A stretch of DNA of 62,330 bases from Syntrophales bacterium (GTDB taxonomy: Bacteria > Desulfobacterota > Syntrophia > Syntrophales > JACQWR01): positions 1-62,330 of the forward strand of contig JBAQLR010000126.1 of NCBI GenBank assembly GCA_049302035.1, given 5' to 3'. Position numbers and translations under genes: made by a program. Positions within the stretch are counted from its first letter, which is position 1, and every line of letters starts with the position of its first letter. A model generated the notes under the pieces. That model made no database searches. It saw nothing but the letters and a program-made list of their open reading frames with translations, and was not told where the DNA came from. Shown piece after piece: positions 7,380 through 61,575 of this stretch.

Positions 7380-7380
7380 G

Positions 7381-7764: not shown

Positions 7765-7804
7765 AGTAGTTTCTCCGCCAGTTGTCTTGTGAATATGGAA
7801 ATAT

Positions 7805-7822
7805 AAGCAAGTCACATACCAA
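7805..7822 (-). promoter_or_regulatory. sigma-54 promoter upstream of flgB
   Basis: The reverse complement reads TTGGTATGTGACTTGCTT, with GG-N10-GC spacing. It sits in the 70-nt gap between the regulator stop and the flgB start. Confidence 0.65.
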
Positions 7823-7834
7823 GAACTATAACCG

Positions 7835-9199: not shown

Positions 9200-9275
9200 C
9201 TTCGCCCACCATCGATAATTTATGCCTCTTGTACGTCAATATATTGGCGTGCTTTATTTACCCCGATCGCCAAGG

Positions 9276-42559: not shown

Positions 42560-42560
42560 G

Positions 42561-43358
42561 ATGAAACCGGTGCGCATCCTGTCTATCGCGGGCTCCGATC
42601 CAAGCGGCGGGGCGGGCCTTCAGGCCGACGTGAAAACCATTACCATCCTGGGCGGTTTTGCCATGACCGTAATTACGGCCCTGACCGTCCAGAATACGCT
42701 GGGTGTACAGGAGATTGTTGCCCTACCGCCTGACCTCGTGGCCAGGCAGTTTGATGCTTTGGCTGCGGACATTGGTTTTGATGCGATAAAAACCGGAATG
42801 CTGCCGAACCGGGCAGTTTTGGAAACAGTGGTCGCCAGGATCAGAACCTACGGACTCGCCAGGGTCATTATAGACCCGGTCCTGGCGGCCAAACGGGGAG
42901 AAGCACTCATGGATGCGGACACGATCCCCCTGCTTAAGGAAGAATTGCTGCCCCTTGCCCAATTGGTTACACCCAACATCCCCGAGGCAGAGATTTTATC
43001 CGGCATCATCATCACCGGCCCGGAAGATATGAAGAAAGCGGCCCTGATCATACGTCAAACGGGGGTGGGCAATGTTCTTATCAAGGGCGGGCACCTACCG
43101 GGCAGGAATACAGAGGCGCTTGATATTCTTTACGATGGCCGCAACTTTCATGAATTCCGAGCGCCACACATTGACACCAAGAACACCCACGGCACGGGTT
43201 GCACCTTTGCCTCAGCCATTGCCACCTTCCTGGCCGCAGGCTACGACATGCCGGAGGCGGTGGCCAAGGCCAAGAACTATGTCACGGAGGCGATCCGGCA
43301 TGCCTGGCCGCTGGGCAAAGGGCGGGGGCCGCTCAACCATCTGGCCCCCCGCCGGTGA
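42561..43358 (+). CDS. thiD: hydroxymethylpyrimidine/phosphomethylpyrimidine kinase ThiD
   Basis: Ribokinase-like fold with IAGSDPSGGAGLQAD and HGTGCTFASAIA. Confidence 0.9.
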   Translation: MKPVRILSIAGSDPSGGAGLQADVKTITILGGFAMTVITALTVQNTLGVQEIVALPPDLVARQFDALAADIGFDAIKTGMLPNRAVLETVVARIRTYGLARVIIDPVLAAKRGEALMDADTIPLLKEELLPLAQLVTPNIPEAEILSGIIITGPEDMKKAALIIRQTGVGNVLIKGGHLPGRNTEALDILYDGRNFHEFRAPHIDTKNTHGTGCTFASAIATFLAAGYDMPEAVAKAKNYVTEAIRHAWPLGKGRGPLNHLAPRR

Positions 43359-43441
43359 AAAGGATAAGATTGATGCACCCGGAAACATTGCTTTAAGATT
43401 AATAGGAACGGGGCAGGTTGAGACTGCCGGGAGGATAAAAG

Positions 43442-44728
43442 ATGACGCAACTGGAAATGGCAATAAACGGGCAAATCTCGGAAGACATGGAGATATGCGC
43501 CGCGCAGGAAGGAGTATCCCCAGAATTTATCAGGGCCGGCGTGGCGGCTGGCAATATTGTGGTCGTCCGCAACAACCGGCACGCCTCGATTAAGCCGCTG
43601 GCCGTGGGCAAGGGATTGCGGACCAAGGTCAACGCCAATATCGGCACCTCCGGCGATCATGCCGATTGGAAGCTGGAGCTGGCCAAGGTGCAGGTGGCGA
43701 CGGCGGCGGGCGCCGATACGCTCATGGATCTCTCCACTGGCGGCGATCTGGCCGCCATCCGTAAGGCGATCATGCAGGCTTCAACCCTGGCCGTTGGCAC
43801 CGTGCCGATTTATCAGGCCGCCGCCGCCATGATTGCCCAGGGCAAAGCCGTCACGGCCATGACGGCCGATGCCCTCTTTGCCGTCATCGAAGAAAACGGT
43901 GACGACGGGGTGGATTTCCTCACCGTGCACTGTGGCGTGACACGCCGGAGCCTGGATTGCCTTAATGCCCAGGGGCGGTTGCTGGGAATTGTCAGCCGGG
44001 GCGGTTCCATCACGGCCAACTGGATGAAGTGCAGCGGCCAGGAAAATCCGCTCTACGAATACTATGATCGCCTGCTGACCATTGCCCGACACTACGACAT
44101 GGTCTTGAGTCTGGGTGATGGCCTGCGGCCGGGATGTCTGGCCGATGCCACCGACCGGGGACAATTGCAGGAACTTATCCTCCTGGGAGAGCTGGCGAAA
44201 AGGGCCAGGGAAAAAGGCGTGCAGGTCATGATCGAGGGGCCGGGACATGTCCCGATCCAGGACATAGAGGCTAACATCCGGTTGGAGAAAAGCATCTGCA
44301 ATGACGCGCCTTTTTATGTGCTAGGCCCTTTGCCCACCGACATTGCGCCCGGTTACGACCATATTACCGCCGCGATCGGCGGGGCCATTGCCGGCGCCGC
44401 CGGCGCAGATTTTCTCTGCTACGTCACGCCTTCCGAACACCTGCGGCTGCCAACCCTGGAAGATGTACGGGAAGGGGTCATGGCATCCCGCATTGCCGCC
44501 CACATTGCCGATCTGGCCAAAGGCCTGCCCGGGGCCATGGCCAGGGATCTCGCCATGGCCAAAAACAGAAAGGAACTGAATTGGCAGGGACAGATCGACA
44601 GCGCCCTCGATCCGGAAAAGGCGGAAAGGTTGCTGGAAATCAGCGCTAAAGCCAAGGAAAAAGGTTGCACCATGTGTGGAGAACTATGCGCCATCAAGTT
44701 GGGGGCGGATACCCCCGTGAAAATTTGA
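43442..44728 (+). CDS. thiC: phosphomethylpyrimidine synthase ThiC (short form)
   Basis: 428 aa with a conserved ThiC core and the C-terminal CTMCGELCA Fe-S motif. Confidence 0.9.
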   Translation: MTQLEMAINGQISEDMEICAAQEGVSPEFIRAGVAAGNIVVVRNNRHASIKPLAVGKGLRTKVNANIGTSGDHADWKLELAKVQVATAAGADTLMDLSTGGDLAAIRKAIMQASTLAVGTVPIYQAAAAMIAQGKAVTAMTADALFAVIEENGDDGVDFLTVHCGVTRRSLDCLNAQGRLLGIVSRGGSITANWMKCSGQENPLYEYYDRLLTIARHYDMVLSLGDGLRPGCLADATDRGQLQELILLGELAKRAREKGVQVMIEGPGHVPIQDIEANIRLEKSICNDAPFYVLGPLPTDIAPGYDHITAAIGGAIAGAAGADFLCYVTPSEHLRLPTLEDVREGVMASRIAAHIADLAKGLPGAMARDLAMAKNRKELNWQGQIDSALDPEKAERLLEISAKAKEKGCTMCGELCAIKLGADTPVKI

Positions 44729-46861: not shown

Positions 46862-49492
46862 ATGTGGTATAGGCCCGCGAGCATGAAGGGTACGGTGATG
46901 AAACGGAAAATGAACTGGCGAAAAATATCTGACAATTTGTCCATGGAAAACAAGGGGCTCCACCACTCGCTGAGTGTGGCCTTTGCCTTTTTCTTCCTCT
47001 TTCCCTTGCTGGGGTTTGCGTATTTTATCCTCAAATACGATCTGCTACAGGATAATCTTATTCCCTTTGTCGCCCTGGCCCTGCTGATTTCCGCGCTTGC
47101 CGGGTATAACATCATCCGGAAGATATTCGACGATATCCGGACTACCTCGCAGGGCATGGAAAAAACAATTGCCCAAGACCTTAAAGACGTCGTCCCAGTA
47201 AGCAATCTCAGCGAAACACAGGGCATCATCCAGTCTTTTCGCACCCTGGAGAAGGAACTGCTCGGCAGCTTCCGTAAGCTGGACCGGCGTGTTTCGCAGA
47301 TTTCCATCCTGAAAGAACTCTCTGACCTTTGCTATGTCACCTTTGATACGGAGGACCTTTTCTATGTAACCCTGGAACGGGCCATGAAATTAGCCGATGC
47401 TGACATCGGTTCCGTCCTGATTCTGGAGCAACCGAAACGGGAATCATTTATCATGCAGGCCAACATCGGGCACGAGGGCAGGTTGAGTAAAGGAGACCGG
47501 ATCGCTTTTGCGGACAGCATCGCCAAATACGCCGTGATCAATAAATCCCCTCTCCTGGTGGATGACATTGAGACAGACTTCCGCTTTGCCCGCTCCAACC
47601 GTGCCCAATACGGAGCCAGGGCTTTCCTCTGCATGCCCTTAAAAGGCATCAAAGAGGTTATTGGCGTACTGAACCTGTCGCGACGCGAATCGTCGCTCCC
47701 CTTTACCCAGGATGATATCGCGGTTCTAAGCCCGCTCTTGAGCAGCGCCGCCTTCACCTATGACAATCTTGCTTTGATGAAAAAGTATGAGGCCGGTGAG
47801 TTGCATCTCAAGGTATTGAATGACCTGCACGCCATCTTGACCTCCAGCCTCCGGGACAGCGAACGCTTGCAAGCCCTGCTGAAGAAGATCCGCGAAGATG
47901 TCCCCTGCGATGTAGCCATGATCCTGGTGGAAAACGAAAATAATCCCGGCCATATGAGCCTGGCGGCCTTCCTGGCCGATATGCAAGTCTCCATGCCGCA
48001 GCAAAAGGACTATCCCTACGCCGACACCGTTCTGGAACAGGTTCTCAAGCAACGGCTCACCATAAATATAAATAATCCCTCCCAGTTACCCCACCCTGTT
48101 GAACAGGAGCTTTTTTTAAGCTGCGGGCTGCATTCCTGCCTGCTTTACCCTCTTACGGCGGGTGACATCAAAGGAGTCCTGGCAATGGGCCTGCTGCGCG
48201 GCTTCTTTGACGGCCCACCGGAACGGAATGAGGCTCTGGCCAATCTGTTGGCGCTGGCCATGGAAAAAGACCGCCTGTCGGCCTCGATCATCAAAAGGGA
48301 TCAGGAGATGACGCTCATCAAACAAATTGGCAGCCTCCTGGCCGCTTCTACCTTCGATATGCAGGAAGTTCTGGGACACACAATGGACCTGATCCGGGCA
48401 ACACTGGAGGTGGAGGCAGGCTCGCTCCTGTTGCTGGAGAAGGATGAACTGACCTTCAATGTAAGCTTTAACGTCAAGGAAAAGGGCGCGCCAGACGCGC
48501 TCAAGAATCTGCGGCTGAAACTGGGACAGGGGATTGCGGGCTACTGCGCCACCCGTGGCGAACCGATTATGGTCAGGAACGCCTTGGAATCGAAACAATT
48601 TTCCCCTGAATTTGACAAGCGCACCGGTTTTTCCACCCGCTCTGTCCTCTGTGTTCCTCTGATTTCCCAAAGCCGTGTAATCGGGGTTATCCAGGTAATA
48701 AATAAACTGGGGGGCGACTTCAATGACAACGATATGCGCCTGTTGCAATCCATCGCCACGACCGTCAGTATTGCCCTGGAAAATGCCCGCCTCTATCAGG
48801 AAACCCTCTCCGCAACGGAACATGAACGCAGTATCCGGAGCATGTTTCAGAAGTTCGTTCCCAAGGAGATCGTGGACAAGATCATCCATGACAACGACGG
48901 CGGGAGACCACCCGCCAATGAACTGAAGACCATAACCCTGATGAACATCGATATTCGGGGTTTTTCTCTCTTGGCCCGTACCCTGGGCTCCCAAAAAACC
49001 GTGGCCATCCTTAATCATTTTTTCGGCATCATGGGGGAGATTGTCTTTAAGCATGGAGGCATCGTAGATAAGTATCTGGGGGACGGCTTCCTGGCCCTGT
49101 TCGGCGCCCCGGTTTCCGATATCCATGATGCCGATCATGCCGTGGCCGCAGCCCTGGAAATGCAGGCCTCCATCGGCTCGATCAACGACCATTTTGTGGG
49201 GGAACTGGAAAGGCCGATCATTACCGGCATCAGCGTCCATACGGGTGAAGCGGTGGTAGGCAATATCGGCTTCGAAAAGAGAATGGATTATACGGTCATC
49301 GGCGACTCGGTTAACGCTGTTTTCAAGATTCAGGAAATGACCCGGTCGCTGCCCAACGGAATTCTGATCAGTGAAAAGACCCTCCGAGCCCTTTGCGACA
49401 CTCATCCTGAGGTGCGGGAACGGGATGTCTATAACAGCGGAGAGTTCCCGGAGGCATTAATGATTTACGAAGTGCTGTGTGGGCAGGGGTGA
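46862..49492 (+). CDS. membrane-anchored triple-GAF class III adenylate/guanylate cyclase
   Basis: Two N-terminal TM segments, three GAF-like regions, and a C-terminal CYCc domain (IDIRGFS..KYLGDGFLALFGAP..GEAVVGNIG). The start is ambiguous among ATGs at 46862-46910. Confidence 0.85.
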   Translation: MWYRPASMKGTVMKRKMNWRKISDNLSMENKGLHHSLSVAFAFFFLFPLLGFAYFILKYDLLQDNLIPFVALALLISALAGYNIIRKIFDDIRTTSQGMEKTIAQDLKDVVPVSNLSETQGIIQSFRTLEKELLGSFRKLDRRVSQISILKELSDLCYVTFDTEDLFYVTLERAMKLADADIGSVLILEQPKRESFIMQANIGHEGRLSKGDRIAFADSIAKYAVINKSPLLVDDIETDFRFARSNRAQYGARAFLCMPLKGIKEVIGVLNLSRRESSLPFTQDDIAVLSPLLSSAAFTYDNLALMKKYEAGELHLKVLNDLHAILTSSLRDSERLQALLKKIREDVPCDVAMILVENENNPGHMSLAAFLADMQVSMPQQKDYPYADTVLEQVLKQRLTININNPSQLPHPVEQELFLSCGLHSCLLYPLTAGDIKGVLAMGLLRGFFDGPPERNEALANLLALAMEKDRLSASIIKRDQEMTLIKQIGSLLAASTFDMQEVLGHTMDLIRATLEVEAGSLLLLEKDELTFNVSFNVKEKGAPDALKNLRLKLGQGIAGYCATRGEPIMVRNALESKQFSPEFDKRTGFSTRSVLCVPLISQSRVIGVIQVINKLGGDFNDNDMRLLQSIATTVSIALENARLYQETLSATEHERSIRSMFQKFVPKEIVDKIIHDNDGGRPPANELKTITLMNIDIRGFSLLARTLGSQKTVAILNHFFGIMGEIVFKHGGIVDKYLGDGFLALFGAPVSDIHDADHAVAAALEMQASIGSINDHFVGELERPIITGISVHTGEAVVGNIGFEKRMDYTVIGDSVNAVFKIQEMTRSLPNGILISEKTLRALCDTHPEVRERDVYNSGEFPEALMIYEVLCGQG

Positions 49493-49843
49493 AGGCTGCA
49501 CCACATGCCGGCACGTCACCAGCTTCTCTTCTTCGGCGCCTTAACCATCAAGCCTGTCTGGGCGGGGGAAGCGCTGATTGCCGTCGTCAAAAAAAAATTA
49601 TTGACATAGCAAAATATTTATAATAGGTCCGATGACGTTTTTCCGCTTAACAAGGCGCCTTTACAGCAATTTCTTAAGCTGGTTCATCGACGCAGTTCCC
49701 CACAAAAGAGAAAACAGGCTCGCCGAACATCTCGGGCAAGTTTGATTTCGGGGTGGTTGGTGGTCATATCTCATGACCTGCTTCTTGGAGTATTTGGTTC
49801 TTATCGCGGCAGGTTAACAAACGTTAAAGTAGGAGTTTATTCG

Positions 49844-50389
49844 ATGTTAGAGATCAGATGGCATGGAAGAGGCGGTCAGGGTGCGGTGACATCCGTGGAA
49901 TTGCTTGCCTTGGCGGCTATTGGAGAAGGTAAATTTGCCCAGGGCTTCCCCAGCTTTGGCCCGGAAAGAAGAGGGGCGCCAGTAGCGGCGTTTAACCGTG
50001 TCGATGACAGGCGGATAAAGGCCCGTTCCGGCATCTACCATCCCGATGTCGTCGTTGTCCTCGACGAGGGGCTGGTGGGTGTGATAAACGTCACCGAGGG
50101 CTTAAAACCTGAAGGCACATTAATTATCTGCACGTCCAAAACCAGGGCGGCAATCAAAAAGGCGCTCGCCTACAGAGGCCGCCTGGGCACCTTGAACGGC
50201 CTGGCCATCGCCCGCCAGGAACTGGGCGTCGCCATCGTCAACACCACCATGCTGGGAGCTCTCATCAAGGCGACAAACGTGGTCGAAATGGATGCCATGC
50301 GTGGGCCTGTGGAGCATCGCTTCGGGAGAATTGCCCAGAAGAACCTGGCGGCCATGAGAAGAGCCTATGAAGAGGTGGAGATCAACTAA
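49844..50389 (+). CDS. porC: 2-oxoacid:ferredoxin oxidoreductase gamma subunit (pyruvate/ketoisovalerate type)
   Basis: MLEIRWHGRGGQGAVTS.. gamma-subunit signature. The start is set at the ATG at 49844 with an AGGAG RBS. Confidence 0.85.
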   Translation: MLEIRWHGRGGQGAVTSVELLALAAIGEGKFAQGFPSFGPERRGAPVAAFNRVDDRRIKARSGIYHPDVVVVLDEGLVGVINVTEGLKPEGTLIICTSKTRAAIKKALAYRGRLGTLNGLAIARQELGVAIVNTTMLGALIKATNVVEMDAMRGPVEHRFGRIAQKNLAAMRRAYEEVEIN

Positions 50390-50412
50390 AAAGACTTTTT
50401 TGAGGTAAGGTA

Positions 50413-50703
50413 ATGGGAGCAAATAAATGGCCAGAAGATTGGCGGAGCGTTAACCTGGGTTGTGTAGTATTCGAGCCCGGCAGCGCGGGTGAGTACCATA
50501 CCGGGAGCTGGCGGTCGCAACGGCCTGTATTGGATAAGTCTCGATGCATCAAGTGCGGACTCTGCTACATCGTCTGCCCGGAAGGATGCATAGCGGAAGA
50601 TGCGGACGGATATTTCTCGGCGAATCTTGACTACTGCAAGGGCTGCGGTATCTGTCCTCACGAGTGCTGGCCTCTGGCCATTAAAATGGTGGAGGAGGAA
50701 TAA
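50413..50703 (+). CDS. porD: 2-oxoacid:ferredoxin oxidoreductase delta subunit (2x[4Fe-4S])
   Basis: CIKCGLCYIVCP and CKGCGICPHEC motifs. 96 aa. Confidence 0.85.
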   Translation: MGANKWPEDWRSVNLGCVVFEPGSAGEYHTGSWRSQRPVLDKSRCIKCGLCYIVCPEGCIAEDADGYFSANLDYCKGCGICPHECWPLAIKMVEEE

Positions 50704-50706
50704 GCC

Positions 50707-51885
50707 GTGTCAAAACGAATCGGGATGGAAGTAGCGGTTGCGGTAGCGGAAGCTGTGGCCTTGTGCCGGATTGATGTGGCGGCTGTTTATCCCATCACTC
50801 CGAATACCCATGTGGCGGAGCATCTCTCGGATATCGTCGCGGATGGGAAAATCGATGCGGAATTCATTACGGTTGAATCGGAACACTCTGCTTTAAGCGC
50901 CGTTGTCGGGGCCGCAGGCACGGGGGCGCGGACTTTTACCGCCACGAGTTCCCAGGGTTTGATGTATATGACGGAAATTATCCCCATTGCCTCGGCCATG
51001 CGGCTCCCCATTGTCATGTCTATTGCGAACCGGGCGATATCGGGTCCGCTCAGCATCTGGAACGACCATAGCGATATCATGTATCAACGTGATGGCGGCT
51101 GGATTTCCCTCTTTGCGGAAAATGGTCAGGAAGCGGTGGATATGGCCATTCAGGCCTTCAAGATTGCCGAACATCGCGATGTCATGCTGCCGGTAAATTT
51201 CAACATGGATGGTTTCCAACTCACCCACATGGTAGAGCCGCTGGTAATGCCTGATCAGGAAGAGGTGGATAAATTTCTGCCCCCTTTCGTACCCTACGCG
51301 ACGCTCCATCCGGACCGGCCTGTTTCCATGGGCGCCATCGGTATGCCAGAAATATTTACCGAGGTAATGAAGGCCAAGGATGCGGCTCTGATGAACTCAA
51401 AAAAAGTCATCCTGGAGGTCTGGAAAGAATGGGAAAAGCTTTTCGGCCGCAAGTATGAACCCCTTCAGGAATACAAGACGGAAGGGGCTGAGGTTTTGAT
51501 CCTTACCATGGGTTCCGTGGGAGAAACAGCAGAGTTGGCAATCGATGCACTGCGCAGCAAAGGAATCCCCGTGGGCTTGCTGAAACTGAAACTCTGGCGT
51601 CCCTTCCCCCGGGAGGAGCTGAGGAAAGCCGTTAAAGGCGCAAAAACGCTGATCGCCACCGACCGGGCTGTTTCTTTTGGAGCAGGCGGAGGCCCTCTGG
51701 GCGTGGAAGTCCGTTCCGCTCTCTATGACCTGCCTGACCGCCCCACCGTCATCAACGAGCTCATCGGCCTCGGCGGCCGCGACATGACCATGGAAGATTT
51801 CAGCGCCATCCTGCTTAAAGCAGGCAAGAGTGGCGGAAAAAAGAAGCGGGAAGCCTACGAATTCTACGGAGTGAGGGAAGCATGA
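50707..51885 (+). CDS. porA: 2-oxoacid:ferredoxin oxidoreductase alpha subunit
   Basis: 392-aa POR alpha family member (..AAVYPITPNTHVAE..) with a GTG start. Confidence 0.9.
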   Translation: MSKRIGMEVAVAVAEAVALCRIDVAAVYPITPNTHVAEHLSDIVADGKIDAEFITVESEHSALSAVVGAAGTGARTFTATSSQGLMYMTEIIPIASAMRLPIVMSIANRAISGPLSIWNDHSDIMYQRDGGWISLFAENGQEAVDMAIQAFKIAEHRDVMLPVNFNMDGFQLTHMVEPLVMPDQEEVDKFLPPFVPYATLHPDRPVSMGAIGMPEIFTEVMKAKDAALMNSKKVILEVWKEWEKLFGRKYEPLQEYKTEGAEVLILTMGSVGETAELAIDALRSKGIPVGLLKLKLWRPFPREELRKAVKGAKTLIATDRAVSFGAGGGPLGVEVRSALYDLPDRPTVINELIGLGGRDMTMEDFSAILLKAGKSGGKKKREAYEFYGVREA

Positions 51886-52856
51886 GCATGCCAAGCAATG
51901 TCAAATTAGTGGAAAACTTCGATTTATATGCCCCGAAACTGACGGACAAGGAAGAATATTTCTGCCCCGGCCATCGTGCCTGCCAGGGATGCGGCGAGGC
52001 CTTGGCCGTGCGCCTTATGTGTAAGGCATTAGGCAAGGATACGGTAATCACCAATGCCACGGGCTGTATGGAGGTGGTTTCCAGCCTCTACCCCACGACA
52101 GCATGGAAACTGCCCTGGATACACGTGGCTTTCCCCAACGCTGCGGCAGTGTGCTCCGGTGTAGAGGCCGGTCTAAAGGCCTTGCGCCGCAAGGGAAAGA
52201 TCGCGGACCGAGATGTCAAGGCCGTGGCCATCGGCGGTGATGGCGGTACAATGGACATTGGTCTTCAGGCCCTTTCCGGCGCCATGGAGCGGGGTCACAA
52301 TATGCTTTATGTCTGCTTCGACAATGAAGCGTATATGAATACGGGCATTCAGCGCTCGAGCGCTACGCCCTTCGGCGCGGCGACAACAACGGCGCCCGCC
52401 GGCAAGGTGAGCAGCGGCAACAGCACGTGGAAAAAGAATCTTCCGGAAATCATGGTGGCCCACAATCTCGCATATGTGGCGACGGCCTCCCATGGTTATC
52501 CCATCGACTTCATGAACAAGGTAAAAAAAGCGCGCCAGGTCAAGGGGCCTTCCTACATCCATTGCTTCAGCGTTTGTCCCACGGGGTGGCGCTCTGCTAC
52601 GGAACATACCATGAAGCTGGCGCGCATGGCGACGGAAACAGGTGTCTTCCCCCTCTATGAAGTGGAAAACGGCAAGTACCGCATGACAATTGAGCCGCAG
52701 CAAGACTTGCGTCCCATGCAAGACTATCTGAAACTTCAAGGGAGATTTCGTCATCTCGGGCCGGACCAGATTAAGTTCATTCAGGACAGGGTCAACTTGG
52801 AGTACCGGAAGCTGCTCAACAAAGTGGAGCATTCCCAATCCTGGGATGAAATATAA
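51882..52856 (+). CDS. porB: 2-oxoacid:ferredoxin oxidoreductase beta subunit (TPP-binding)
   Basis: GHRACQGCGE Fe-S motif and TPP motif IGGDGGTMDIG..NEAYMNTG. ATGA overlap with porA. Confidence 0.9.
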   Translation: MSMPSNVKLVENFDLYAPKLTDKEEYFCPGHRACQGCGEALAVRLMCKALGKDTVITNATGCMEVVSSLYPTTAWKLPWIHVAFPNAAAVCSGVEAGLKALRRKGKIADRDVKAVAIGGDGGTMDIGLQALSGAMERGHNMLYVCFDNEAYMNTGIQRSSATPFGAATTTAPAGKVSSGNSTWKKNLPEIMVAHNLAYVATASHGYPIDFMNKVKKARQVKGPSYIHCFSVCPTGWRSATEHTMKLARMATETGVFPLYEVENGKYRMTIEPQQDLRPMQDYLKLQGRFRHLGPDQIKFIQDRVNLEYRKLLNKVEHSQSWDEI

Positions 52857-52889
52857 TCAATAAGATAAAATACTGCTGATGGTGATTTG

Positions 52890-53384
52890 ATGAATAGGTC
52901 AACTGTGAAAAAAGAAGACAGTAAACGGCTCAAGGAAATTATCGCCCGCTACCACTCTGAACCGGGTTCCCTGCTGGCGATTCTTCAGGATTTACAAGAG
53001 GCGTATAATTATTTGCCTGTGGACATGCTGAAATTGATGAGCCACGAAATGGACATCCCCCTCACGCGGATATACGAGGTGGCGACTTTCTACACGGCTT
53101 TCAGCCTTAAACCACGGGGCCAGCATATCGTGAAACTCTGTGTGGGTACGGCTTGCCACGTCCGCGGTGCGGCGGGTATCCTCGACAAACTGGAAAGAAC
53201 CCTGGAAATCAAACCGGGCGAAACGAGCGGCGATCGCAAATTTACCCTGGAAACCGTTAACTGCGTCGGCGCCTGCGCCCTCGGCCCCGTCATGGTAATG
53301 GACGGAGAGTACCACGGGCAGGTAACCATGGCTAAAGTGGACAAGGTTCTCGGGCCGCTGCAGAAAGGGGCGCAAAAATCATGA
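52890..53384 (+). CDS. NuoE/HydC-type [2Fe-2S] subunit
   Basis: Thioredoxin-like [2Fe-2S] pattern [19 protein letters not shown]. The ATG at 52890 follows an in-frame TTG at 52887. Confidence 0.85.
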
Positions 53385-55225
53385 AAAAGATTGCCAACGC
53401 CACGGCCTTGCGCCAACTCCAGAAAAAACTGAAAGAAAAGTGGGATCCCAAAAAACCAATAGTAACAATCTGCGCCGGAACGGGCTGCCGTGGCTACGGG
53501 TGCATCAGTGTGAAGGAAGCCTTGGAGGCGGAGATCGCCAAAAACAAGCTGGCCGTGGAAGTTCGGGCCACGGGCTGCTTCGGCTTCTGCGAAAAAGGCC
53601 CCCTCGTCATCATCCAACCGCAAAATATTTTCTATCAGCAGGTGAAGGTGACTGATGCTGCTGATATCGTTAATAAAACCGTCGTAAACGGCGAAGTGCT
53701 GGAAAAACTCCTCTATCGTGATCCCGCCACGGGCAAACGGATAGAAAAAGAAGCAGACGTCCCCTTCTACAAGAAACAAAAACGGCTCATCTTTGGTTCC
53801 AATGGCATGATCGACCCCACGCGGATTGAGGATTATCTGACTCTGGACGGTTATGCGGCCCTGGCCAAGGCATTGCAGATGACGCCGACAAAAGTGGTCA
53901 AGGAAGTCAAGGATGCCGGTCTGCGGGGACGGGGCGGCGGCGGTTTTCACGCCGGCGTCAAATGGGAATCCTGTCGTGAAGCGCACGGATCGCCAAAATA
54001 TGTGATCGGCAACGGCGACGAAGGTGATCCCGGGGCTTACATGGACCGGAGTCTGATGGAAGGCAACCCCCACAGCGTCATCGAAGGCATGATTATCGGC
54101 GCCTACGCTATCGGCGCCAGTCGGGGATTCCTTTATGTGCGCAACGAGTATCCCCTGGCGGTCATGCATCTGACCATGGCCCTGGAAAACGCCCGCCAGG
54201 CGGGTCTCCTGGGCAAGAATATCCTGGGTTCCGGTTTCGATTTTGATATTTCCCTCAGCAAGGGCGGCGGCGCCTTTGTTTGCGGCGAATCTTCCGCCCT
54301 CTTCGCCTCCATCGAAGGCAAGGCTGGGGAAGCGCGCGCCAAGTACATCCATGCCGTGGAAAAAGGTCTCTGGGATAAACCCACTGTCTTAAACAACGTG
54401 GAAACCTGGGCCAATGTCCCGCTGATCCTTAACAAAGGGGCCAAATGGTATAGCGCCATCGGCACGGCTAACAGCAAGGGCACAAAAATCTTCTCCCTCG
54501 TGGGAAAGATCAACAATACCGGTCTGGTGGAAGTGCCCATGGGCATGCCCCTGCGGGAAATCATCTATGATATGGGCGGCGGCATTCCCAAGGGGAGAAA
54601 GTTCAAGGCCGTCCAGACCGGCGGGCCTTCAGGCGGCTGCCTCCCTGAAAGCCTGCTTGATCTGCCGGTGGATTTCGACAAACTTGCGGAAGTTGGTTCC
54701 ATGATGGGTTCGGGCGGCATGATCGTCATGGACGATCGCTCCTGCATGGTCGATGTGGCGAAGTATTTTCTAGCCTTCCTGCAGGAAGAATCGTGCGGGA
54801 AATGCGTGCCCTGCCGGGAAGGCGTCCGTCGCATGCGGGACATTTTGGAAGATATCTGCGCCGGTAAAGGACGGGAAGGCGATGTGGAGTTACTGGAAAC
54901 AATGTCCCAGGCGATCCAGGACGGTTCCCTCTGCGCCCTCGGCGGCAGCGCCCCTAACCCTGTTTTGAGCACCATCCGGTATTTCCGCGATGAGTACGAG
55001 GCTCACATCAAGGGCAAGCGCTGTCCCGCCGGTGTCTGTAAGGCGCTTATTTCATACAGCATCAACGCCGACAACTGCACGGGTTGCGGTGTCTGTGCGA
55101 AGGTATGCCCCACCGGAGCCGCACAGGGAGAAAAGAAAAAAATCCATGTCATTAACGAGGCGACCTGCACTCGGTGCGGCGCCTGCGTGGAGAGCTGTAA
55201 ATTCGACGCAATCAACGTTCAATAA
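53381..55225 (+). CDS. NuoF/HydB-type FMN- and NAD(H)-binding subunit with extra N-terminal [2Fe-2S] and C-terminal 2x[4Fe-4S] domains
   Basis: N-terminal [36 protein letters not shown] (FMN site), [12 protein letters not shown] (NADH site) and [18 protein letters not shown] (N3-type cluster). C-terminal [23 protein letters not shown]. 614 aa. Confidence 0.9.
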
Positions 55226-55235
55226 GGGTAGGAAA

Positions 55236-55949
55236 ATGGCTAATATTACCATAGACGGCAAGAAAATTGAGGCCCCCGCAGGAGCAACCATCTTGCAGGC
55301 AGCCCGTGAAAATGGCATAGTGATCCCAACCCTCTGTTCCCACGAAGCCTTGGAACAATCCGGCGCTTGCCGGTTCTGCTCGGTGGAAATCAAAAAGGGC
55401 AAACGTACAAAAGTAGTTGCTTCCTGCCTCTATCAAGTGGAAGAAGGTCTGGAAGTGGATACGAAGAGCGAGCGGGTGCTGAATGTCCGCCGCCTGATTC
55501 TGCAGCTCCTCATGGCGAGGAATCCCAAGGCGGACGTATTGAAGGAGCTGGCCCGGGAAATAGGTGTGGAACCACAGGCGCGCTTCGTGCCCGACACGGA
55601 CAAGGGCAAATGTATTCTCTGCCGTCAGTGCGTAAAGACCTGCGAACAGATTGTGGGCGCGTGCGCCATCGGCTTGTCCTACCGCGGGTCCCATAAGGTC
55701 GTAGGCCGCCCCTTCAAGGAGGATCCACCAGCCTGCATCGGTTGCGGCGCCTGCGCCTATGTGTGTCCCACGGGTCACATCGAAATGAGGACCACCCTGG
55801 ACACCCGGACGATATGGGGCCGGACGTTCCAGATGACTGCCTGCAAGACCTGCGGCCGGTATTTCGCGCCGACGGATCAGCTAAGATTTATAAGTGAAAA
55901 AGCGGGCGTGCCGGTGGAGAACTTGGCCATCTGCACCAGTTGTAGATAA
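55236..55949 (+). CDS. HoxU / NuoG-N-terminal-like Fe-S subunit ([2Fe-2S] + [4Fe-4S] clusters, no catalytic domain)
   Basis: MANITIDGKKIEAPAGATILQAARENGIVIPTLCSHE..ACRFCSVE.. (plant-type [2Fe-2S]), then CILCRQCVKTC, CIGCGACAYVCP and a terminal CKTCG..CTSC. The start is set at the ATG at 55236. 237 aa. Confidence 0.8.
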   Translation: MANITIDGKKIEAPAGATILQAARENGIVIPTLCSHEALEQSGACRFCSVEIKKGKRTKVVASCLYQVEEGLEVDTKSERVLNVRRLILQLLMARNPKADVLKELAREIGVEPQARFVPDTDKGKCILCRQCVKTCEQIVGACAIGLSYRGSHKVVGRPFKEDPPACIGCGACAYVCPTGHIEMRTTLDTRTIWGRTFQMTACKTCGRYFAPTDQLRFISEKAGVPVENLAICTSCR

Positions 55950-55955
55950 AAACAT

Positions 55956-56031
55956 TCCCCAGTAGCTCAGTCGGTAGAGCGGGTGGCTGTTAACCACCAT
56001 GTCCGTGGTTCGAGTCCGCGCTGGGGAGCCA
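55956..56031 (+). tRNA. tRNA-Asn (anticodon GTT), CCA encoded
   Basis: I folded the cloverleaf by hand. Acceptor stem TCCCCAG/CTGGGGA, D stem GCTC/GAGC, anticodon stem GGTGG/CCACC with loop CTGTTAA, T stem CGTGG/CCGCG with loop TTCGAGT, discriminator G, then CCA. Confidence 0.9.
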
Positions 56032-56092
56032 ATATAAGACGGAACTGGGCATGCCTGGAAGAGAGATCCAGAACCTAGTTCCGTTGCCGAAC

Positions 56093-56146
56093 GAAGTGCA
56101 CCTGCCAGGGCCGCCAAGCTCCCTGACAGGTGCACTTCTTCTTTAA
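56093..56146 (+). terminator. strong Rho-independent terminator after tRNA-Asn
   Basis: A 12-bp stem GAAGTGCACCTG/CAGGTGCACTTC, extended by CAGGG/CCCTG and followed by TTCTTT. Confidence 0.7.
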
Positions 56147-56264
56147 CGATCCTGATTTCATCGACAAGCAGCTTTAAATATTCCTTCCCAAAGTTTGATA
56201 CTAAGTTGCATTCGTATATAGACTAACATACAACATCCTCCATAAAAAAACTATGGAGGGAGAT

Positions 56265-56765: not shown

Positions 56766-58493
56766 TTACCACATACTTGTGGCAACTTGCCTGCCGAAGC
56801 TATCCCAAGCTCCCAGCCATATTCCGCCACCTGTTGGGGTGAAGGTCTGACCGGTGCTTGTTATCGGGTTCAGCGTAAATGATTTGCTTCGATCCGCCGA
56901 CGCGAGTGAGAATTCAGCCCTGGCTGAATTACCTGAATTGTCATTCATCTGTGCTGACAGCCAGTCATTGGTGAGCCCGGCGGGCAGGGTCCAGGTAACT
57001 GTTGCGTTGCCGCCGGTAAAGGCGCGCATCTCGGCCATTATTGGCGAGGTGATGGTCGGGAACGAGGCAGCCGTCAATTCGGTGTTCAGGTACGGACGCT
57101 TCCGGAGCTTTTCGGTGTAGGTGGCTGACAAGGTTGACCCGATGTAGAGTTGAACGGTGTAGACCTCTCCTGTATCGGCGATGGCGGCAATTTGACTGTC
57201 ATTCATGTAATAATTATTGCCATTGTACATGTCCCCTTGAATAGCAAACCACTCGGTGTTGATCTGACTGATCAGAGTAACTGGACTAGTAAGACCGACA
57301 CCGTTAACCACTGCTGACGTAATGCCCTTGCTGCCACGGTCTTCGATATTGATCCATAGGCCCGTAGTTATCGTGGCAGGCGTATTGACGGATTGATACT
57401 CTGCTCTGGCCCTAATGCGAACATGAGCAATGCGCTGGTTCCCCTGCATATACCATTTCCCATCTACCTTTTTGATCATGTGAAATGGCTCCGGACCATC
57501 ATTATCTACCTTGCCATTCTGAATGACATCAAACGCAACCACGGCCGTTCCCATTGCCGCATCCATGGATTGTATGGCGATATTGGCAAACGATATGCCG
57601 ATAATGTCCTGTTCAGTGGTTAGTTCAGAGAGGAAAGAGGCCAGGTTCTGCCCATCGTCTATGAAGGTAGCGCTATCAAACAGACTCAGCAGGGTCGGGT
57701 TGGTCTCACTGGGAAGGCTCGTGGCAAAAAGAGCGGAAAATGCCTTGAACCCAGCGCTGATCTTCTGTATGTCGGTTACGCCGGTTGCCACGTCTGTCGT
57801 GTTGTCCAGGACACCGGTATAGATCCCGGTCGCAATATTTGAGGTCATCTGCTGCTGGGTGATGATATTTGTAATGGTTGCAACACCTGTGGTCGTATCT
57901 GTTGTCACCCTGAGCACGTCCAGAGCCGCATCAAGACCGGAGTGGTCGGTGCTGAAAGAGGCCCGCAGCAGGTCGATCGAACTGCTGACACCCACTGCCT
58001 GTAGGACAGGAAGAAGCTTGGCCCTGAGGGCCTCGGACTGTGCCGTCAACTGAACTGCGGTAAGGGTGGAGAAGGCGCCGTTGTCAAAATATGTTTTGGC
58101 AATCGACCCGGCGATATTCGCCACAATCAAATCGGTGAGCGGGGTGATGTTGATCGTGCCTCCCACGTCCGCCGATGTGCCGGCTGAGTACAGGTGATAC
58201 TCGTTGCCGCCGACATAGCCGTCAGCCCGCACCATGTAGGGTGCTTTCAGACCGGTAACATCCACGGTGTATTTGCCATTGGCCTCGATGGTAACGGTTT
58301 TTGTCTGAGCGGTGGGGGTTGTGCTGTCCTTAATTGTCACCGTCCCGATAATCGGCGCACCGGCCGCCGCAGTTCCCGTTAGCGTTGTCGAGCGTGCGGG
58401 CGCTTCGTCTCCACTACCTCCGCAGGCCAATATAAGTAGCGCGATAGCCGCGAGCAGGCTTGTTAACTTGATAAATTTCCAGATACTTCTCAT
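56766..58493 (-). CDS. Thr/Gly/Ala-rich lipoprotein of unknown function (575 aa)
   Basis: Signal peptide plus lipobox (LLILACGGSGD). The N-terminal region looks like a carboxypeptidase-regulatory/Ig-like beta domain (GTVTIKDS..VTIEANGKYTVDVTGL). I do not recognise the rest. The start is set at the ATG at 58493 with an AGGAG RBS. Confidence 0.7.
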   Translation of the reverse strand: MRSIWKFIKLTSLLAAIALLILACGGSGDEAPARSTTLTGTAAAGAPIIGTVTIKDSTTPTAQTKTVTIEANGKYTVDVTGLKAPYMVRADGYVGGNEYHLYSAGTSADVGGTINITPLTDLIVANIAGSIAKTYFDNGAFSTLTAVQLTAQSEALRAKLLPVLQAVGVSSSIDLLRASFSTDHSGLDAALDVLRVTTDTTTGVATITNIITQQQMTSNIATGIYTGVLDNTTDVATGVTDIQKISAGFKAFSALFATSLPSETNPTLLSLFDSATFIDDGQNLASFLSELTTEQDIIGISFANIAIQSMDAAMGTAVVAFDVIQNGKVDNDGPEPFHMIKKVDGKWYMQGNQRIAHVRIRARAEYQSVNTPATITTGLWINIEDRGSKGITSAVVNGVGLTSPVTLISQINTEWFAIQGDMYNGNNYYMNDSQIAAIADTGEVYTVQLYIGSTLSATYTEKLRKRPYLNTELTAASFPTITSPIMAEMRAFTGGNATVTWTLPAGLTNDWLSAQMNDNSGNSARAEFSLASADRSKSFTLNPITSTGQTFTPTGGGIWLGAWDSFGRQVATSMW

Positions 58494-59010
58494 GATGCGT
58501 TTCTCCTTGTTTAAAATTAAACACCTTGTTGTTAAAATGTAACTATTCAGTCCCTCTCCCGAGAACAACCTACCCCCTTTAAGAAGGAAGTCAAGGGATT
58601 TTAGAGGTTGTAACAATTACATCCCTCTTTTCAGTCCCTTCCAGAAAATGACGACTCGATAGCCATTATGTTATTCGCTGTAAGGCAAATGGCATGCCGT
58701 GTTGGGTGATGTAGGTTGAAAAAATGGACACCGATCTCATGGATGCTGGATCTGGTTCAGCAGGGCAACCGCCAGCATGTTAAAGAGCGAGGGTAAAAAA
58801 TTTATGATACGGGATTTTTCTTGACAACGTTGTCGCAATTATTGTATCGACAACACACCTTGGAGTTGTCGGGGGAGCGGATGCTGCTGAAAAGCGGTAT
58901 CACCGCGAAATTGCAGCGGTTAGTATGATTTTAACCTCGCGGCTTCTTAGCCGCATATGGTTACTTTGTAGTGATTTTGTGTACGCTTTTTCTCGCGAGG
59001 TTCTTGGACC

Positions 59011-59364
59011 ATGATTGAATACCTTCCCATTCTTGTCATGCTGTGCCTCGGCTTGTTCATTGCCGGCCTGATGGTCGGCGCATCACATTTCCTCGGTCAT
59101 AACATTCGTAAGAAAACAAAACGTGCCACCTATGAATGCGGCATGCAGACCATCGGTCCGGCGCATATGAGAATGAATATCCGCTACTATATCATGGCCA
59201 TGCTGTTTTTGATTTTTGACCTTGAGGTTATGTTCCTCTATCCCTGGGCGGTGGTGGCGGGTGGTCTCAAAATGTTCGGTTTTCTGGAGATGCTGTTTTT
59301 CATTTTTATTCTCCTTGTCGGTTATTTTTACGTATGGAAGAAAGGTGCCTTGGAATGGGAATAG
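59011..59364 (+). CDS. nuoA: NADH-quinone oxidoreductase subunit A
   Basis: 117 aa, 3 TM segments, ..YECGM.. motif. Confidence 0.9.
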
Positions 59365-59852
59365 ATGACACCGCTGCCGCTTCTGTGCAGGATGTGATTA
59401 ATTGGGCCAGGAAAAATTCCGTTTGGCCGGTGACTTTCGGTCTGGCTTGCTGCGCGCTGGAGATGATGGTGGCCAGTTCGGCCACTTACGACATCGCCCG
59501 TTTTGGCTCGGAGGTCTTCCGCCCCTCTCCTCGCCAGGCGGATCTCATGATTGTGGCCGGCACGGTCACAAAAAAGATGGCCCCCATGCTGAAGCGCATT
59601 TACGAGCAGATGCCGGAGCCCAAATGGGTTATTGCCTATGGCGCCTGCGCCTGTAGCGGGGGAATTTTTCAGACTTACAATGTCGTCCAGGGGGTGGATG
59701 AGATCATCCCCGTGGATGTCTATGTTCCCGGCTGTCCGCCGCGCCCGGAAGGTCTGCTCAAAGGCTTGATCGCTTTGCAGGAAAAGATTGGCAGGGAAGC
59801 GCCCGGTTCCAGGAAGCTGGTCAGTTTGCCCTGGGGTGAGAGCAATGGTTAG
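59355..59852 (+). CDS. nuoB: NADH-quinone oxidoreductase subunit B
   Basis: [15 protein letters not shown] and GCPPRPE (N2 cluster ligands). The start is set at the ATG at 59355. Confidence 0.9.
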
Positions 59853-60342
59853 GTGCATGGCAGGCGACTTGCTGAGAGGGAAATATCCCGACGCAGTGCT
59901 GAATATTGTCGAGTTCCGGGGCGAAACTACCATCACCGTAAGCTTAGGGCAGCTACGGGACGTCATGGCTTTTCTGAAGGAAAGCGAGAACTGCTCCTAC
60001 GACTTGCTGCTGGACCTTGCCGGTGTGGATCGTGGCGACATTTCGCCGCGTTTTATGGTTGTTTATCTGCTGCATTCCATGAAATTTAGCAACCGGTTGA
60101 GAATCAAGGCCGAGGTGGCAGAAGGAGCTGCGGTAGATACGGTGAGCGATATCTGGAAGGCGGCCGATTGGCTGGAAAGGGAGGCTTACGACATGTTCGG
60201 CATCGGCTTCCGCAATCATCCGGATTTGCGGCGCATTCTGCTGGAAGAGGATTTTGCCGGTTTTCCTTTAAGAAAGGATTATCCCCTGGCCGGACCTGAC
60301 TTCGGGAAACTTTTCAATGTATGTTTGCCGGAAGAGCAGTGA
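59845..60342 (+). CDS. nuoC: NADH-quinone oxidoreductase subunit C
   Basis: ..[26 protein letters not shown].. 30-kDa subunit signature. The start is either 59845 or 59857. Confidence 0.9.
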
Positions 60343-60399
60343 CTGAGCCGTTAACCGTGTTGTTTTTTCATAATTAATTAATACGAGGACCGCAAAGAG

Positions 60400-61575
60400 A
60401 TGGCTGAAACTCGTTATATGACGATCAATATGGGGCCACAGCACCCGGCAACGCACGGGGTGTTGCGCCTGCTTTTGGAATTGGATGGAGAAATCGTTGT
60501 CAAGGCCGTGCCGCACATCGGTTACCTTCATCGGGGGGTGGAAAAGCTCTCCGAATCCCTAACCTACCCCCAGGGCCTGACCTTGACGGACCGTCTGGAC
60601 TATACCAGCGCCCTTTCCAACAATCTGTCCTATTGTCTGGCCGTGGAAAAGCTTCTGGACATCAAGATTCCCCAGAGGGCACGGTATCTGCGGGTCATGT
60701 TTGCCGAGCTCCAGCGGATTTCGGCCCATCTGCTTTGGCTTGCCACCCACGCCCTCGATCTCGGCGCCATGACGCTGCTTTTTTACGCCTTCCGGGAGAG
60801 AGAAGCGGTCATCGAGATCCTGGAGTTGGTGACGGGAGCCCGTTTGACGCCCAGTTTTATCCGGATCGGCGGTCTGGCGGCCGATATTCCCGATACCTTT
60901 TTGCCCCGCGTCAAGGAGTTCCTTGCGGACATGCCGCGACACATTGCGGAATATGAGACGCTTCTGACGGATAATATCATCTGGAAAAAAAGGACGCAAA
61001 ATATCGCGCCTCTGTCTGCGGAGGAGTGCATCAATTACGGCGTCACGGGGCCGGTGTTGCGGGCTTCCGGCGTTAATTACGACGTGCGGAAGGCCTACCC
61101 CTATTCCAGTTACGAGGATTTTGATTTTGAAATTCCCCTGGGCACGAAAGGTGATGTCTATGATCGTTATCTCGTGCGGCTGCTGGAGATGAAGCAGTCC
61201 ATCAGGATTGCGGAGCAGGTTATCGCCAAATTGCCCGCGGGTTCGGTTGTCGCTGCCGATGCCTTGCAGGTGGTGCCGCCGGCAAAGGCGCAGGTGGGCG
61301 AGGATATTGCGGCGCTCATCAGGCACTTTAAGATCATGCAGGAAGGCTTCAAGGTTCCAGTGGGCGAGGTTTACGCGTCCATCGAATCGTCGAAGGGCGA
61401 GCTTGGTTTTTACTTCATCAGTGACGGCGGCAACAAGCCCTTTCGGATGAAGATCAGGCCGCCGTCCTTTATAAACTTGGGCGCCTTGCCCAAAATGATT
61501 GAAGGGCAAATGGTGGCCGATGTCGTAGCAGCAGTTGGCAGTATCGACATTGTGCTGGGTGAGATAGACAGATAG
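60400..61575 (+). CDS. nuoD: NADH-quinone oxidoreductase subunit D
   Basis: MTINMGPQHPATHGVLRL.. 49-kDa subunit signature. 391 aa. Confidence 0.95.
   Translation: MAETRYMTINMGPQHPATHGVLRLLLELDGEIVVKAVPHIGYLHRGVEKLSESLTYPQGLTLTDRLDYTSALSNNLSYCLAVEKLLDIKIPQRARYLRVMFAELQRISAHLLWLATHALDLGAMTLLFYAFREREAVIEILELVTGARLTPSFIRIGGLAADIPDTFLPRVKEFLADMPRHIAEYETLLTDNIIWKKRTQNIAPLSAEECINYGVTGPVLRASGVNYDVRKAYPYSSYEDFDFEIPLGTKGDVYDRYLVRLLEMKQSIRIAEQVIAKLPAGSVVAADALQVVPPAKAQVGEDIAALIRHFKIMQEGFKVPVGEVYASIESSKGELGFYFISDGGNKPFRMKIRPPSFINLGALPKMIEGQMVADVVAAVGSIDIVLGEIDR

Follow-up and report, generated by a model that had tools for sequence, protein, structure and literature searches.

The window analysed here, a 62,330-nt stretch of DNA of Syntrophales/Smithella-like lineage, carries on its + strand (49844–55949) seven closely packed genes, in which the four subunits of a 2-oxoacid:ferredoxin oxidoreductase (OFOR) are followed by the three subunits of a Bfu-type flavin and iron–sulfur module. 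Gene order, domain content and cofactor ligands make it probable, in our judgement, that the seven genes encode one cytoplasmic complex of the Type 2 BfuABC family, Por-Bfu, in which a pyruvate:ferredoxin oxidoreductase (POR) would be coupled to both NAD(H) and ferredoxin (Fd). Schut et al. (2022, Front Microbiol 13:946711; PMC9304861) had already predicted the same composition under the name 'Por-Bfu', classing it as a Type 2 Bfu enzyme, and they proposed that pyruvate is made from NADH and ferredoxin, or is oxidised only with joint reduction of NAD+ and ferredoxin. The window cluster is a further instance of this already predicted class, which has never been purified or assayed, and the idea is not new. 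In the reading of an earlier note, made from the letters of the window alone, novelty is the one point to be corrected, since composition and mechanistic idea were both in print by 2022. The author of that note knew of no biochemically characterised enzyme of this kind, and this holds for the searchable literature, where nothing on the biochemistry of Por-Bfu or the D. mccartyi genes was found beyond the prediction and discussion in the 2022 paper and in a 2025 paper (PMC12318220). The present analysis adds a Syntrophales-like instance and a wider synteny (24 of 80 loci vs the 12 sequences of the 2022 survey; PMC9304861), which support the published prediction and bring no new concept.

Organization of the por-bfu gene cluster

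The seven open reading frames (ORFs) run in the order porC-porD-porA-porB-bfuC-bfuB-bfuA and are separated, in that order, by 23, 3, −4, 30, −4 and 10 nt, the negative values being two 4-nt overlaps. These coordinates bear out the earlier description of tightly packed porC, porD, porA and porB followed by NuoE-, NuoF- and HoxU-like genes, with gaps of at most 30 nt or overlaps. The start codon of bfuC is either TTG at 52887 or ATG at 52890. Domains were assigned to the translated ORFs with Pfam and NCBIfam, the latter with its equivalog cut-offs.

49844–50389, + strand: porC, gamma subunit of a four-subunit 2-oxoacid:ferredoxin oxidoreductase (181 aa; PF01558, E 2.6e-34)
50413–50703, + strand: porD, delta subunit, 2×[4Fe-4S] ferredoxin-like (96 aa)
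50707–51885, + strand: porA, alpha subunit (392 aa, GTG start; POR_N and PFOR_II domains)
51882–52856, + strand: porB, beta subunit binding thiamine pyrophosphate (TPP), with the proximal [4Fe-4S] cluster (324 aa; overlaps porA by 4 nt)
52887–53384, + strand: bfuC, NuoE/HydC-like thioredoxin-like [2Fe-2S] protein carrying cluster C1 (165 aa; PF01257, E 3.1e-49)
53381–55225, + strand: bfuB, HydB/WorB-type (NuoF-like) flavoprotein (614 aa; overlaps bfuC by 4 nt)
55236–55949, + strand: bfuA, short WorA-like electron-transfer subunit (237 aa; Fer2_4 and Fer4 domains)

Relatives were collected by a BfuB scan of species-representative genomes, which returned more than 598 relatives. The best 80 of these (58–78% identity) were kept, their loci were searched by tblastn with all seven window proteins, and the flanks of each locus were examined for up to 10 kb a side. 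Individual loci are given below by an L number. Ligand conservation was scored over 20 aligned sequences per subunit, namely the window protein and its homologues from 19 por-linked loci.

The BfuCBA module

BfuB comprises a thioredoxin-like [2Fe-2S] domain (PF01257; residues 25–99), a Complex1_51K domain binding flavin mononucleotide (FMN; residues 176–347), an SLBB domain, an NADH_4Fe-4S domain (residues 458–542) and two Fer4 motifs (residues 560–612). The FMN/NADH core matches PF01512 and PF10589, and the translation contains GRGGGGF and an NADH motif ([12 protein letters not shown]). Pfam and the translation thereby confirm what the earlier note had read in this 614-aa NuoF-like protein: FMN and NADH motifs, an N-terminal [2Fe-2S] domain and a C-terminal 2×[4Fe-4S] domain. 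The ligands of the module are conserved as follows.

BfuB, N-terminal [2Fe-2S]: Cys 31, 36, 66 and 70 (20/20)
BfuB, B1 [4Fe-4S]: Cys 472, 475, 478 and 518 (20/20)
BfuB, B2-type His/Cys (zinc) site: His 542, Cys 548 and Cys 553 (20/20)
BfuB, C-terminal 2×[4Fe-4S]: eight Cys within 566–606 (19/20)
BfuC, C1 [2Fe-2S]: Cys 85, 90, 126 and 130 (20/20)
BfuA, A1 [2Fe-2S], A2 and A4 [4Fe-4S] and zinc finger: 4 + 8 + 4 Cys (all 16 in 20/20)

Among solved structures, the top match of BfuB is WorB (9mqx_B, E 2.8e-250, residues 10–611), followed by the HydB subunits of bifurcating [FeFe]-hydrogenases (8a6t_B and 7q4v_B) and by NiFe-Bfu (7t2r_B); further matches are the NuoF-type complexes 8oh5 and 9bov and NfnABC (9n5u). 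Complex I NuoF and the beta subunits of non-bifurcating formate dehydrogenase (FDH) align to the central core of BfuB only. BfuC, too, comes closest among solved structures to subunits of bifurcating enzymes, in its case the C chains 7t2r_C, 8a6t_C and 9mqx_C, and its scores lie under the NuoE, HoxE and FdhG equivalog cut-offs.

The top solved match of BfuA is the 247-aa WorA (9mqx_A, E 7.2e-57), with residues 3–237 aligned to WorA residues 6–234, including the cysteines of a C-terminal CxxC...CxxC zinc finger. BfuA has no PF10588 match and lacks the His-ligated [4Fe-4S] cluster (A3) as well as A5. It contains no catalytic domain and ends without an H-cluster, Mo-pterin or NiFe domain. The earlier note had described this 237-aa protein as HoxU-like and as stopping before any catalytic domain. 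The second part stands; the label gives way to WorA-like, because PF10588 is absent and the C-terminal zinc finger is conserved. Judged by its domains and ligands, through which Schut et al. (PMC9304861) delimit the bifurcating BfuBC core and a Type 2 BfuA, the NuoE/NuoF/HoxU-like trio is a complete BfuCBA module with a Type 2 BfuA.

With the predicted Por-Bfu, of which that of D. mccartyi 195 is an example, the window cluster shares several traits: the same seven subunits are present, BfuA has A1, A2, A4 and the zinc finger and lacks A3, A5 and the WorA helix, and the B1/B2 segment of the 'Dm Por' BfuB (2022 supplement) is near-identical in motif to that of the window BfuB. The 2025 study describes the BfuA of Por-Bfu as keeping the zinc finger and missing the C-terminal helix (PMC12318220), which agrees with the window BfuA because its alignment stops at residue 234 of the 247 in WorA. 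The differences from D. mccartyi are the Syntrophales/Smithella-like lineage and a tRNA-Asn gene 3' of the cluster instead of a tRNA-Arg/tRNA-Pro bracket; the class itself is a bioinformatic prediction.

WorABCSL of Acetomicrobium mobile (PDB 9MQX; PMC12318220) has the same ABC cofactor set, with a zinc finger in place of A5 and with A3 missing. Its third substrate is of similarly low potential, and it was shown to need NAD and Fd together. Its catalytic partner, however, is the tungstopterin WorSL nanowire rather than a TPP enzyme, and the WorA helix is absent in the window BfuA. The HydABC [FeFe]-hydrogenases (8a6t, 7q4v and 7p5h) match BfuB and BfuC over the full length of HydB and HydC (E ~1e-228 and ~1e-42), and they share the FMN/B1/C1 core and the accessory clusters. 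HydA, in contrast, has an H-cluster and a His-ligated cluster, whereas the window BfuA has 237 aa and scores 134 bits with FeFe_hydrog_A6 (cut-off 765).

Three other identities for the module were considered and rejected. Complex I NuoE/F/G is not supported by the equivalog models (NuoF 472 vs 558.65 bits, NuoE 134.6 vs 141, NuoG 101.9 vs 470). For a HoxEFU diaphorase, HoxE reaches 153 vs 224 bits and HoxU 117 vs 333, and no NiFe large-subunit motif is present in the window. A HydABC [FeFe]-hydrogenase is set aside by the absence of H-cluster motifs from the window, from the 80 BfuA homologues and from the flanks of the por-linked loci.

A different question is whether the module bifurcates. 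BfuCBA could be a diaphorase only, making a non-bifurcating, NAD+-dependent POR in which ferredoxin is not an obligatory third substrate; the outcome would resemble NADH-dependent phenylglyoxylate dehydrogenase or the non-bifurcating NuoEF-containing hydrogenases and FDHs. Modules of the NuoEF type that do not bifurcate are widespread (PMC9304861), and oxidation of pyruvate (~−500 mV) can reduce NAD+ uncoupled. The N-terminal [2Fe-2S], the B2 site and the C-terminal 2×[4Fe-4S] that BfuB keeps are, on the other hand, absent from all characterised non-bifurcating homologues (PMC9304861; the accessory-site definition of a bifurcating BfuB is also given in PMC11829005). WorABCSL, the closest characterised relative, needs both NAD and Fd despite an equally low-potential substrate (PMC12318220). 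OFORs with a built-in NAD module do exist, and the window proteins match the PadE, PadF, PadG and PadI models partially. Phenylglyoxylate dehydrogenase PadEFGHI (NF045762–NF045766) belongs to the same OFOR subfamily and is wired to NAD(H) by an extra flavoprotein subunit. The scores nevertheless fall far under the cut-offs (PadE 167 vs 300 bits, PadF 74 vs 150, PadG 324 vs 700, PadI 263 vs 700), the NAD module PadH is unrelated to NuoEF/BfuBC, and no PadH-like gene is present in the cluster. We know of no description of ferredoxin-coupled bifurcation for PadEFGHI. On balance a pure diaphorase appears improbable, and a bifurcating Por-Bfu is the reading pursued below.

POR subunits and substrate

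The subunits expected of a four-subunit PorABCD are all encoded, PorA being alpha, PorB beta, PorC gamma and PorD delta, with a TPP-binding motif in PorB and conserved ligands for three [4Fe-4S] clusters. PorC matches TIGR02175 (PorC_KorC) with 204.5 bits (cut-off 81.1) and PorD matches TIGR02179 with 97.4 bits (cut-off 60). The eight ligand cysteines of PorD (45, 48, 51, 55, 75, 78, 81 and 85) are invariant (20/20). PorB carries the TPP motif GDG...N..NTG, and its Cys 34, 37 and 62 are invariant (20/20), with Cys 232 kept in 19/20.

The best NCBIfam model for PorA is PorA_Arch (476 bits, under the cut-off of 550). PorB scores 430 bits with NF008819 PorB, passing the cut-off of 405, and 360 bits with the VorB-beta model, failing the same value. 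The closest solved relatives are those of the pyruvate enzyme 9bt4, with 9bt4_B (PFOR alpha) for PorA (E 1.1e-95) and 9bt4_C for PorB (E 4.1e-98); oxalate oxidoreductase comes next for both. Pyruvate is the most likely substrate on these profile scores, because pyruvate-type models are the best for all four subunits, outscoring the Vor, oxalate and Pad models, and because PorB exceeds its equivalog cut-off. Stand-alone PorABCD enzymes, of which PDB entry 9bt4 is a solved example, agree with the window POR in their four subunits, in the TPP motif and in the number of [4Fe-4S] clusters, namely three. They use free ferredoxin only, whereas in the window bfuCBA follows the por genes unbroken.

Genes for thiamin pyrophosphokinase, ThiD (phosphomethylpyrimidine kinase) and ThiC lie at 41879–44728, 5–8 kb upstream of this TPP-dependent POR.

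Conservation of the por-bfu linkage

The earlier note had proposed neighbourhood statistics and a BfuB phylogeny as checks. The former bear out the linkage: OFOR genes stand next to bfuCBA on the same strand in 24 of the 80 loci, in several phyla, and are of por type in 22 of the 80. In 20 loci porCDAB (40–76% identity) lies immediately 5' of bfuCBA on the same strand, and the projected porB–bfuC junction measures −46 to +59 nt in 20 of 21 loci. The por-linked loci belong to Syntrophaceae, Syntrophus, other Thermodesulfobacteriota, SAR324, UBP1, several unclassified metagenome-assembled genomes (MAGs) and many Dehalococcoidia, and thus represent no fewer than four or five lineages of phylum rank. 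The closest BfuB relative, from a Smithella MAG (L001, 78% identity), comes from a sequence that ends inside bfuC, so that its upstream genes are unseen; BfuB of the Dehalococcoidia loci shares 61–66% identity with that of the window.

The linkage has variants. A UBP1 MAG (L003, 5990–12131) has the order porD-porA-porB-bfuC-bfuB-bfuA-porC, with porC 8 nt past bfuA; the gene of an essential POR subunit there sits 3' of the bfu genes. In nine Dehalococcoidia loci (L006, L013, L017, L021, L022, L031, L032, L039 and L059) same-strand genes for tRNA-Arg(CCG) and tRNA-Pro(TGG) stand on either side of the seven genes, in agreement with the bracket described by Schut et al. for D. mccartyi 195 (PMC9304861). 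The seven Por-Bfu genes are similarly expressed in that strain (PMC9304861). Pairwise-identity matrices correlate between Por and Bfu subunits with r = 0.59–0.75, compared with 0.61–0.79 within Por and 0.79–0.82 within Bfu, values that are consistent with inheritance as a unit.

Two loci suggest that other OFORs may be joined to the same module. In an uncultured Thermoanaerobaculia MAG (L056, 7019–9495) an OFOR lies directly 5' of bfuCBA; its alpha subunit falls in the VorB subfamily (530 bits, cut-off 399), and beta and gamma subunits are also present. An unclassified MAG (L025, ~7200–9500) has a different OFOR directly upstream, detected through weak tblastn matches only. In both loci the BfuA protein has an extra tail in addition to a zinc-finger-like motif. 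The 2022 paper (PMC9304861) makes no mention of a second type of OFOR joined to Bfu.

The short zinc-finger BfuA of the window recurs in 20 of the 22 por-type loci and also in L001 and L067. At the other loci BfuA carries other tails or extensions, some reaching ~585 aa, ~1085 aa (with an FAD-oxidoreductase-like CCMYA motif) or 860–893 aa, and others being short. H-cluster motifs are absent from BfuA in all 80 loci.

No other catalytic partner came to light. Pfam searches of 42 further window ORFs returned no hydrogenase or FDH catalytic gene, and scans for H-cluster and NiFe motifs and tblastn searches for Mo-pterin homologues found none in the window or in the flanks (up to 10 kb a side) of the 19 por-linked loci. 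The earlier claim that the module lacks a hydrogenase or FDH catalytic partner is upheld over this range.

Proposed complex and mechanism

From these sequence data we infer the physical association of the seven subunits, the electron path, the coupling of three substrates, the direction and the use of pyruvate. In the proposed complex PorABCD would interconvert pyruvate and CoA with acetyl-CoA and CO2. Electrons would pass from TPP to the [4Fe-4S] cluster of PorB, the two [4Fe-4S] clusters of PorD and then A4, A2 and A1 of BfuA, reaching the FMN/B1/C1 'flavobicluster' of BfuB/BfuC, where they would be split between NAD+ and ferredoxin, or would run the reverse course. FMN would be the NAD(H) site, and the accessory cluster domains of BfuB the ferredoxin site. 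The overall reaction would be:

2 pyruvate + 2 CoA + NAD+ + 2 Fd(ox) <-> 2 acetyl-CoA + 2 CO2 + NADH + H+ + 2 Fd(red)

Coupling would be tight, with neither NAD nor Fd reacting alone, as in the homologous WorABCSL. BfuA would dock to POR through a surface other than the WorA-type helix, since the C-terminal helix of WorA is absent here. In a syntroph that makes acetyl-CoA catabolically the likely direction would be reductive, the complex acting as a pyruvate synthase that forms anabolic pyruvate from NADH and reduced ferredoxin. NADH would give half of the electrons, and the demand for costly reduced ferredoxin would be halved. A four-gene POR is the sole route from acetate to pyruvate in a constraint-based Dehalococcoides model (PMC2930330), and a 2026 study likewise has POR working anabolically in a syntroph that assimilates acetate. 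The earlier proposal of a TPP enzyme wired to NAD(H) with ferredoxin as third partner remains the best account of the synteny and of the bifurcating-module features.

Several findings weigh against this account. Energetically, our own calculation with the Table 1 potentials of PMC9304861 indicates that the pyruvate couple (~−500 mV) can reduce Fd or NAD+ directly. In the same calculation, NADH (~−280 mV) and Fd (~−500 mV) together give ~−390 mV, ~21 kJ/mol short of the standard pyruvate couple, and pyruvate synthesis thus needs a mass-action ratio of ~5×10^3; it is plausible, if unproven, that this ratio is reached at micromolar pyruvate and high CO2 and acetyl-CoA. The assignment to pyruvate is also incomplete at the level of equivalog models, with PorA (476 vs 550 bits), PorC (200.8 vs 270) and PorD (112 vs 120) under their cut-offs. 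The earlier statement that the 2-oxoacid cannot be told from the sequence is accordingly softened: pyruvate-type models fit best and PorB passes its cut-off, and pyruvate stays unproven.

Other points concern the linkage itself. Gene order is not fixed, L038 having bfuCBA before porCDAB, and BfuA of L038 and of L071 lacks the zinc finger. Nor is the zinc finger specific to POR, as it occurs in L067 (40–7374) in a BfuA beside a Mo-pterin oxidoreductase. In a rough neighbour-joining tree (BLOSUM62) the por-linked BfuB proteins form approximately three coherent groups, with deep branches that are short and unsupported and no single clade resolved, and no argument is built on this tree. A search of BfuA against 1.84 billion representatives gave 273 matches at E ≤ 1e-30, and inspection of the longer ones among the top 150 revealed no Por–BfuA fusion; they had low-complexity tails, extra ferredoxin domains, a response-regulator domain or an FDH fusion. 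The searchable literature, finally, holds no experimental evidence for one POR–BfuABC complex or for bifurcation by it.

The zinc finger had been considered as a POR-specific docking tag, and this was rejected in view of the Mo-pterin neighbour in L067 and of its reported presence in Wor, Codh, FdhFeFe and Mbh types (PMC12318220). The L067 cluster also holds an old yellow enzyme (OYE)-family flavoprotein and a CCG-domain protein.

In a rival reading two separate enzymes share an operon, an ordinary POR and a free-standing BfuABC-like NADH/ferredoxin flavoprotein, linked through soluble ferredoxin only or serving some other, unlinked partner. Four-subunit PORs do work alone with ferredoxin, the closest solved relative (9bt4) being a stand-alone enzyme, and the missing fusion, the altered order in L038 and the other partners of zinc-finger BfuA all suit such an arrangement. 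A BfuABC without a third-substrate module would, however, have no complete reaction to catalyse. Same-strand adjacency is kept in distant phyla with very short junctions, and in L003 porC lies 3' of bfuA. In Dehalococcoidia the seven genes stand alone between two tRNA genes, and no other partner was found in the flanks of the 19 loci (up to 10 kb a side). We regard two separate enzymes as unlikely, although as the most serious competitor of a single Por-Bfu complex.

A stronger statement would be that Por-Bfu is a true three-substrate confurcating pyruvate synthase, and that OFOR–Bfu coupling is broader than published, extending to at least five phylum-level lineages and to a VorB-subfamily OFOR. 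This we put forward tentatively, at somewhat less than even confidence. If it is true, the acetyl-CoA/pyruvate node would be coupled in a new way to both the NAD(H) and the ferredoxin pools, and energy-starved anaerobes (syntrophs, organohalide respirers, SAR324 and UBP1) would need just half the usual amount of reduced ferredoxin to fix CO2 into pyruvate, NADH making up the remainder. The energetics of carbon fixation would be altered for syntrophs and Dehalococcoidia living near the thermodynamic limit, and models would need another stoichiometry for pyruvate synthesis. Por-Bfu would also offer a test of the Bfu 'flavobicluster' mechanism on a TPP radical enzyme.

Transcript boundaries

The simplest reading of the cluster would be one transcript from upstream of 49844 to approximately 56147. 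A promoter and terminator scan found no terminator inside the cluster, the promoter- and terminator-like matches there being at chance level only. No significant structure was predicted for the porB–bfuC gap (−7.6 kcal/mol, z = −1.0). Hairpins were evaluated by RNA folding against 200 shuffles, and tRNA genes were called with ARAGORN and Rfam. The flanking elements are:

49493–49843, + strand: intergenic region, likely promoter and leader (351 nt; A-run, TTGACA at 49601–49606, TATAAT at 49619–49624)
55956–56031, + strand: tRNA-Asn(GUU) (ARAGORN; Rfam RF00005, 65 bits; 6 nt past the bfuA stop)
56093–56147, + strand: hairpin followed by UUCUUU (fold of 56085–56150: −34 kcal/mol, z = −6.65, 0/200 shuffles as stable)

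A GGAG ribosome-binding site lies 8 nt 5' of the porC ATG. Further upstream (49590–49625) an A-run precedes perfect TTGACA and TATAAT hexamers that are just 12 nt apart. A canonical sigma-70 promoter is not established here, given this spacing and a scan that returned no promoter of canonical spacing. Rfam detected no riboswitch in the 351-nt leader, the tRNA being its sole match in the whole window. The hairpin at 56093–56147, which a simple terminator scan missed, is likely the terminator of a por-bfu-tRNA unit, and tRNA-Asn is probably carried on the por-bfu transcript. A same-strand tRNA gene directly 3' of bfuA recurs in two distant lineages, with different tRNAs.

Genomic context of the window

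Complex I genes nuoA–D occupy 59011–61575, 3 kb downstream of the cluster, with neither nuoE/F/G nor nuoH behind them. They are followed by an ORF that starts at 61586 and runs off the window end; the part present joins an NADH_4Fe-4S domain, as at the C-terminus of NuoF, to a GltD-like Fer4_20 domain. This protein may serve an 11-subunit-type complex I as an alternative subunit for electron input. With nuoABCD lacking nuoE/F/G and followed by this atypical fusion, bfuCBA could in principle be the missing NADH-input module of complex I, placed by the por genes through chance. The two gene sets are, however, separated by the tRNA, the −34 kcal/mol hairpin and an opposite-strand gene for a 616-aa protein, and nuoA–D occurs in the flanks, up to 10 kb a side, of none of the 80 related loci (0/80). 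BfuA moreover lacks the C-terminal domains of NuoG for docking to complex I, and the NuoE/F/G equivalog cut-offs are not reached. We regard this assignment as highly improbable, and the association of bfuCBA with POR as the better reading.

The 616-aa ORF between the por-bfu and nuo genes (56766–58616, − strand) has no Pfam match, and its N-terminus resembles a lipoprotein signal (…LLILACGG…). Directly 5' of the por-bfu leader lies the gene (46862–49492) of an 876-aa protein that combines three GAF domains with one adenylate/guanylate cyclase domain; a 33%-identical segment of it was found in just one related locus (L057).

Besides these, the window encodes flagellar and chemotaxis proteins, FtsK, a MiaB-like enzyme, a Liv-type ABC transporter, an ABC-F protein, a DEAD-box helicase, CorC, TatD, the thiamine genes, a CCA-adding enzyme, an NlpC/P60 protein, the GAF cyclase and nuoABCD. 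The flagellar and chemotaxis region is large (1–27300) and includes FliI, FliH, FliG, FliF, MotA, MotB, CheA, CheB, CheR, CheD, CheX, a methyl-accepting chemotaxis protein (MCP) and two sigma-54 response regulators, which suggests a motile organism.

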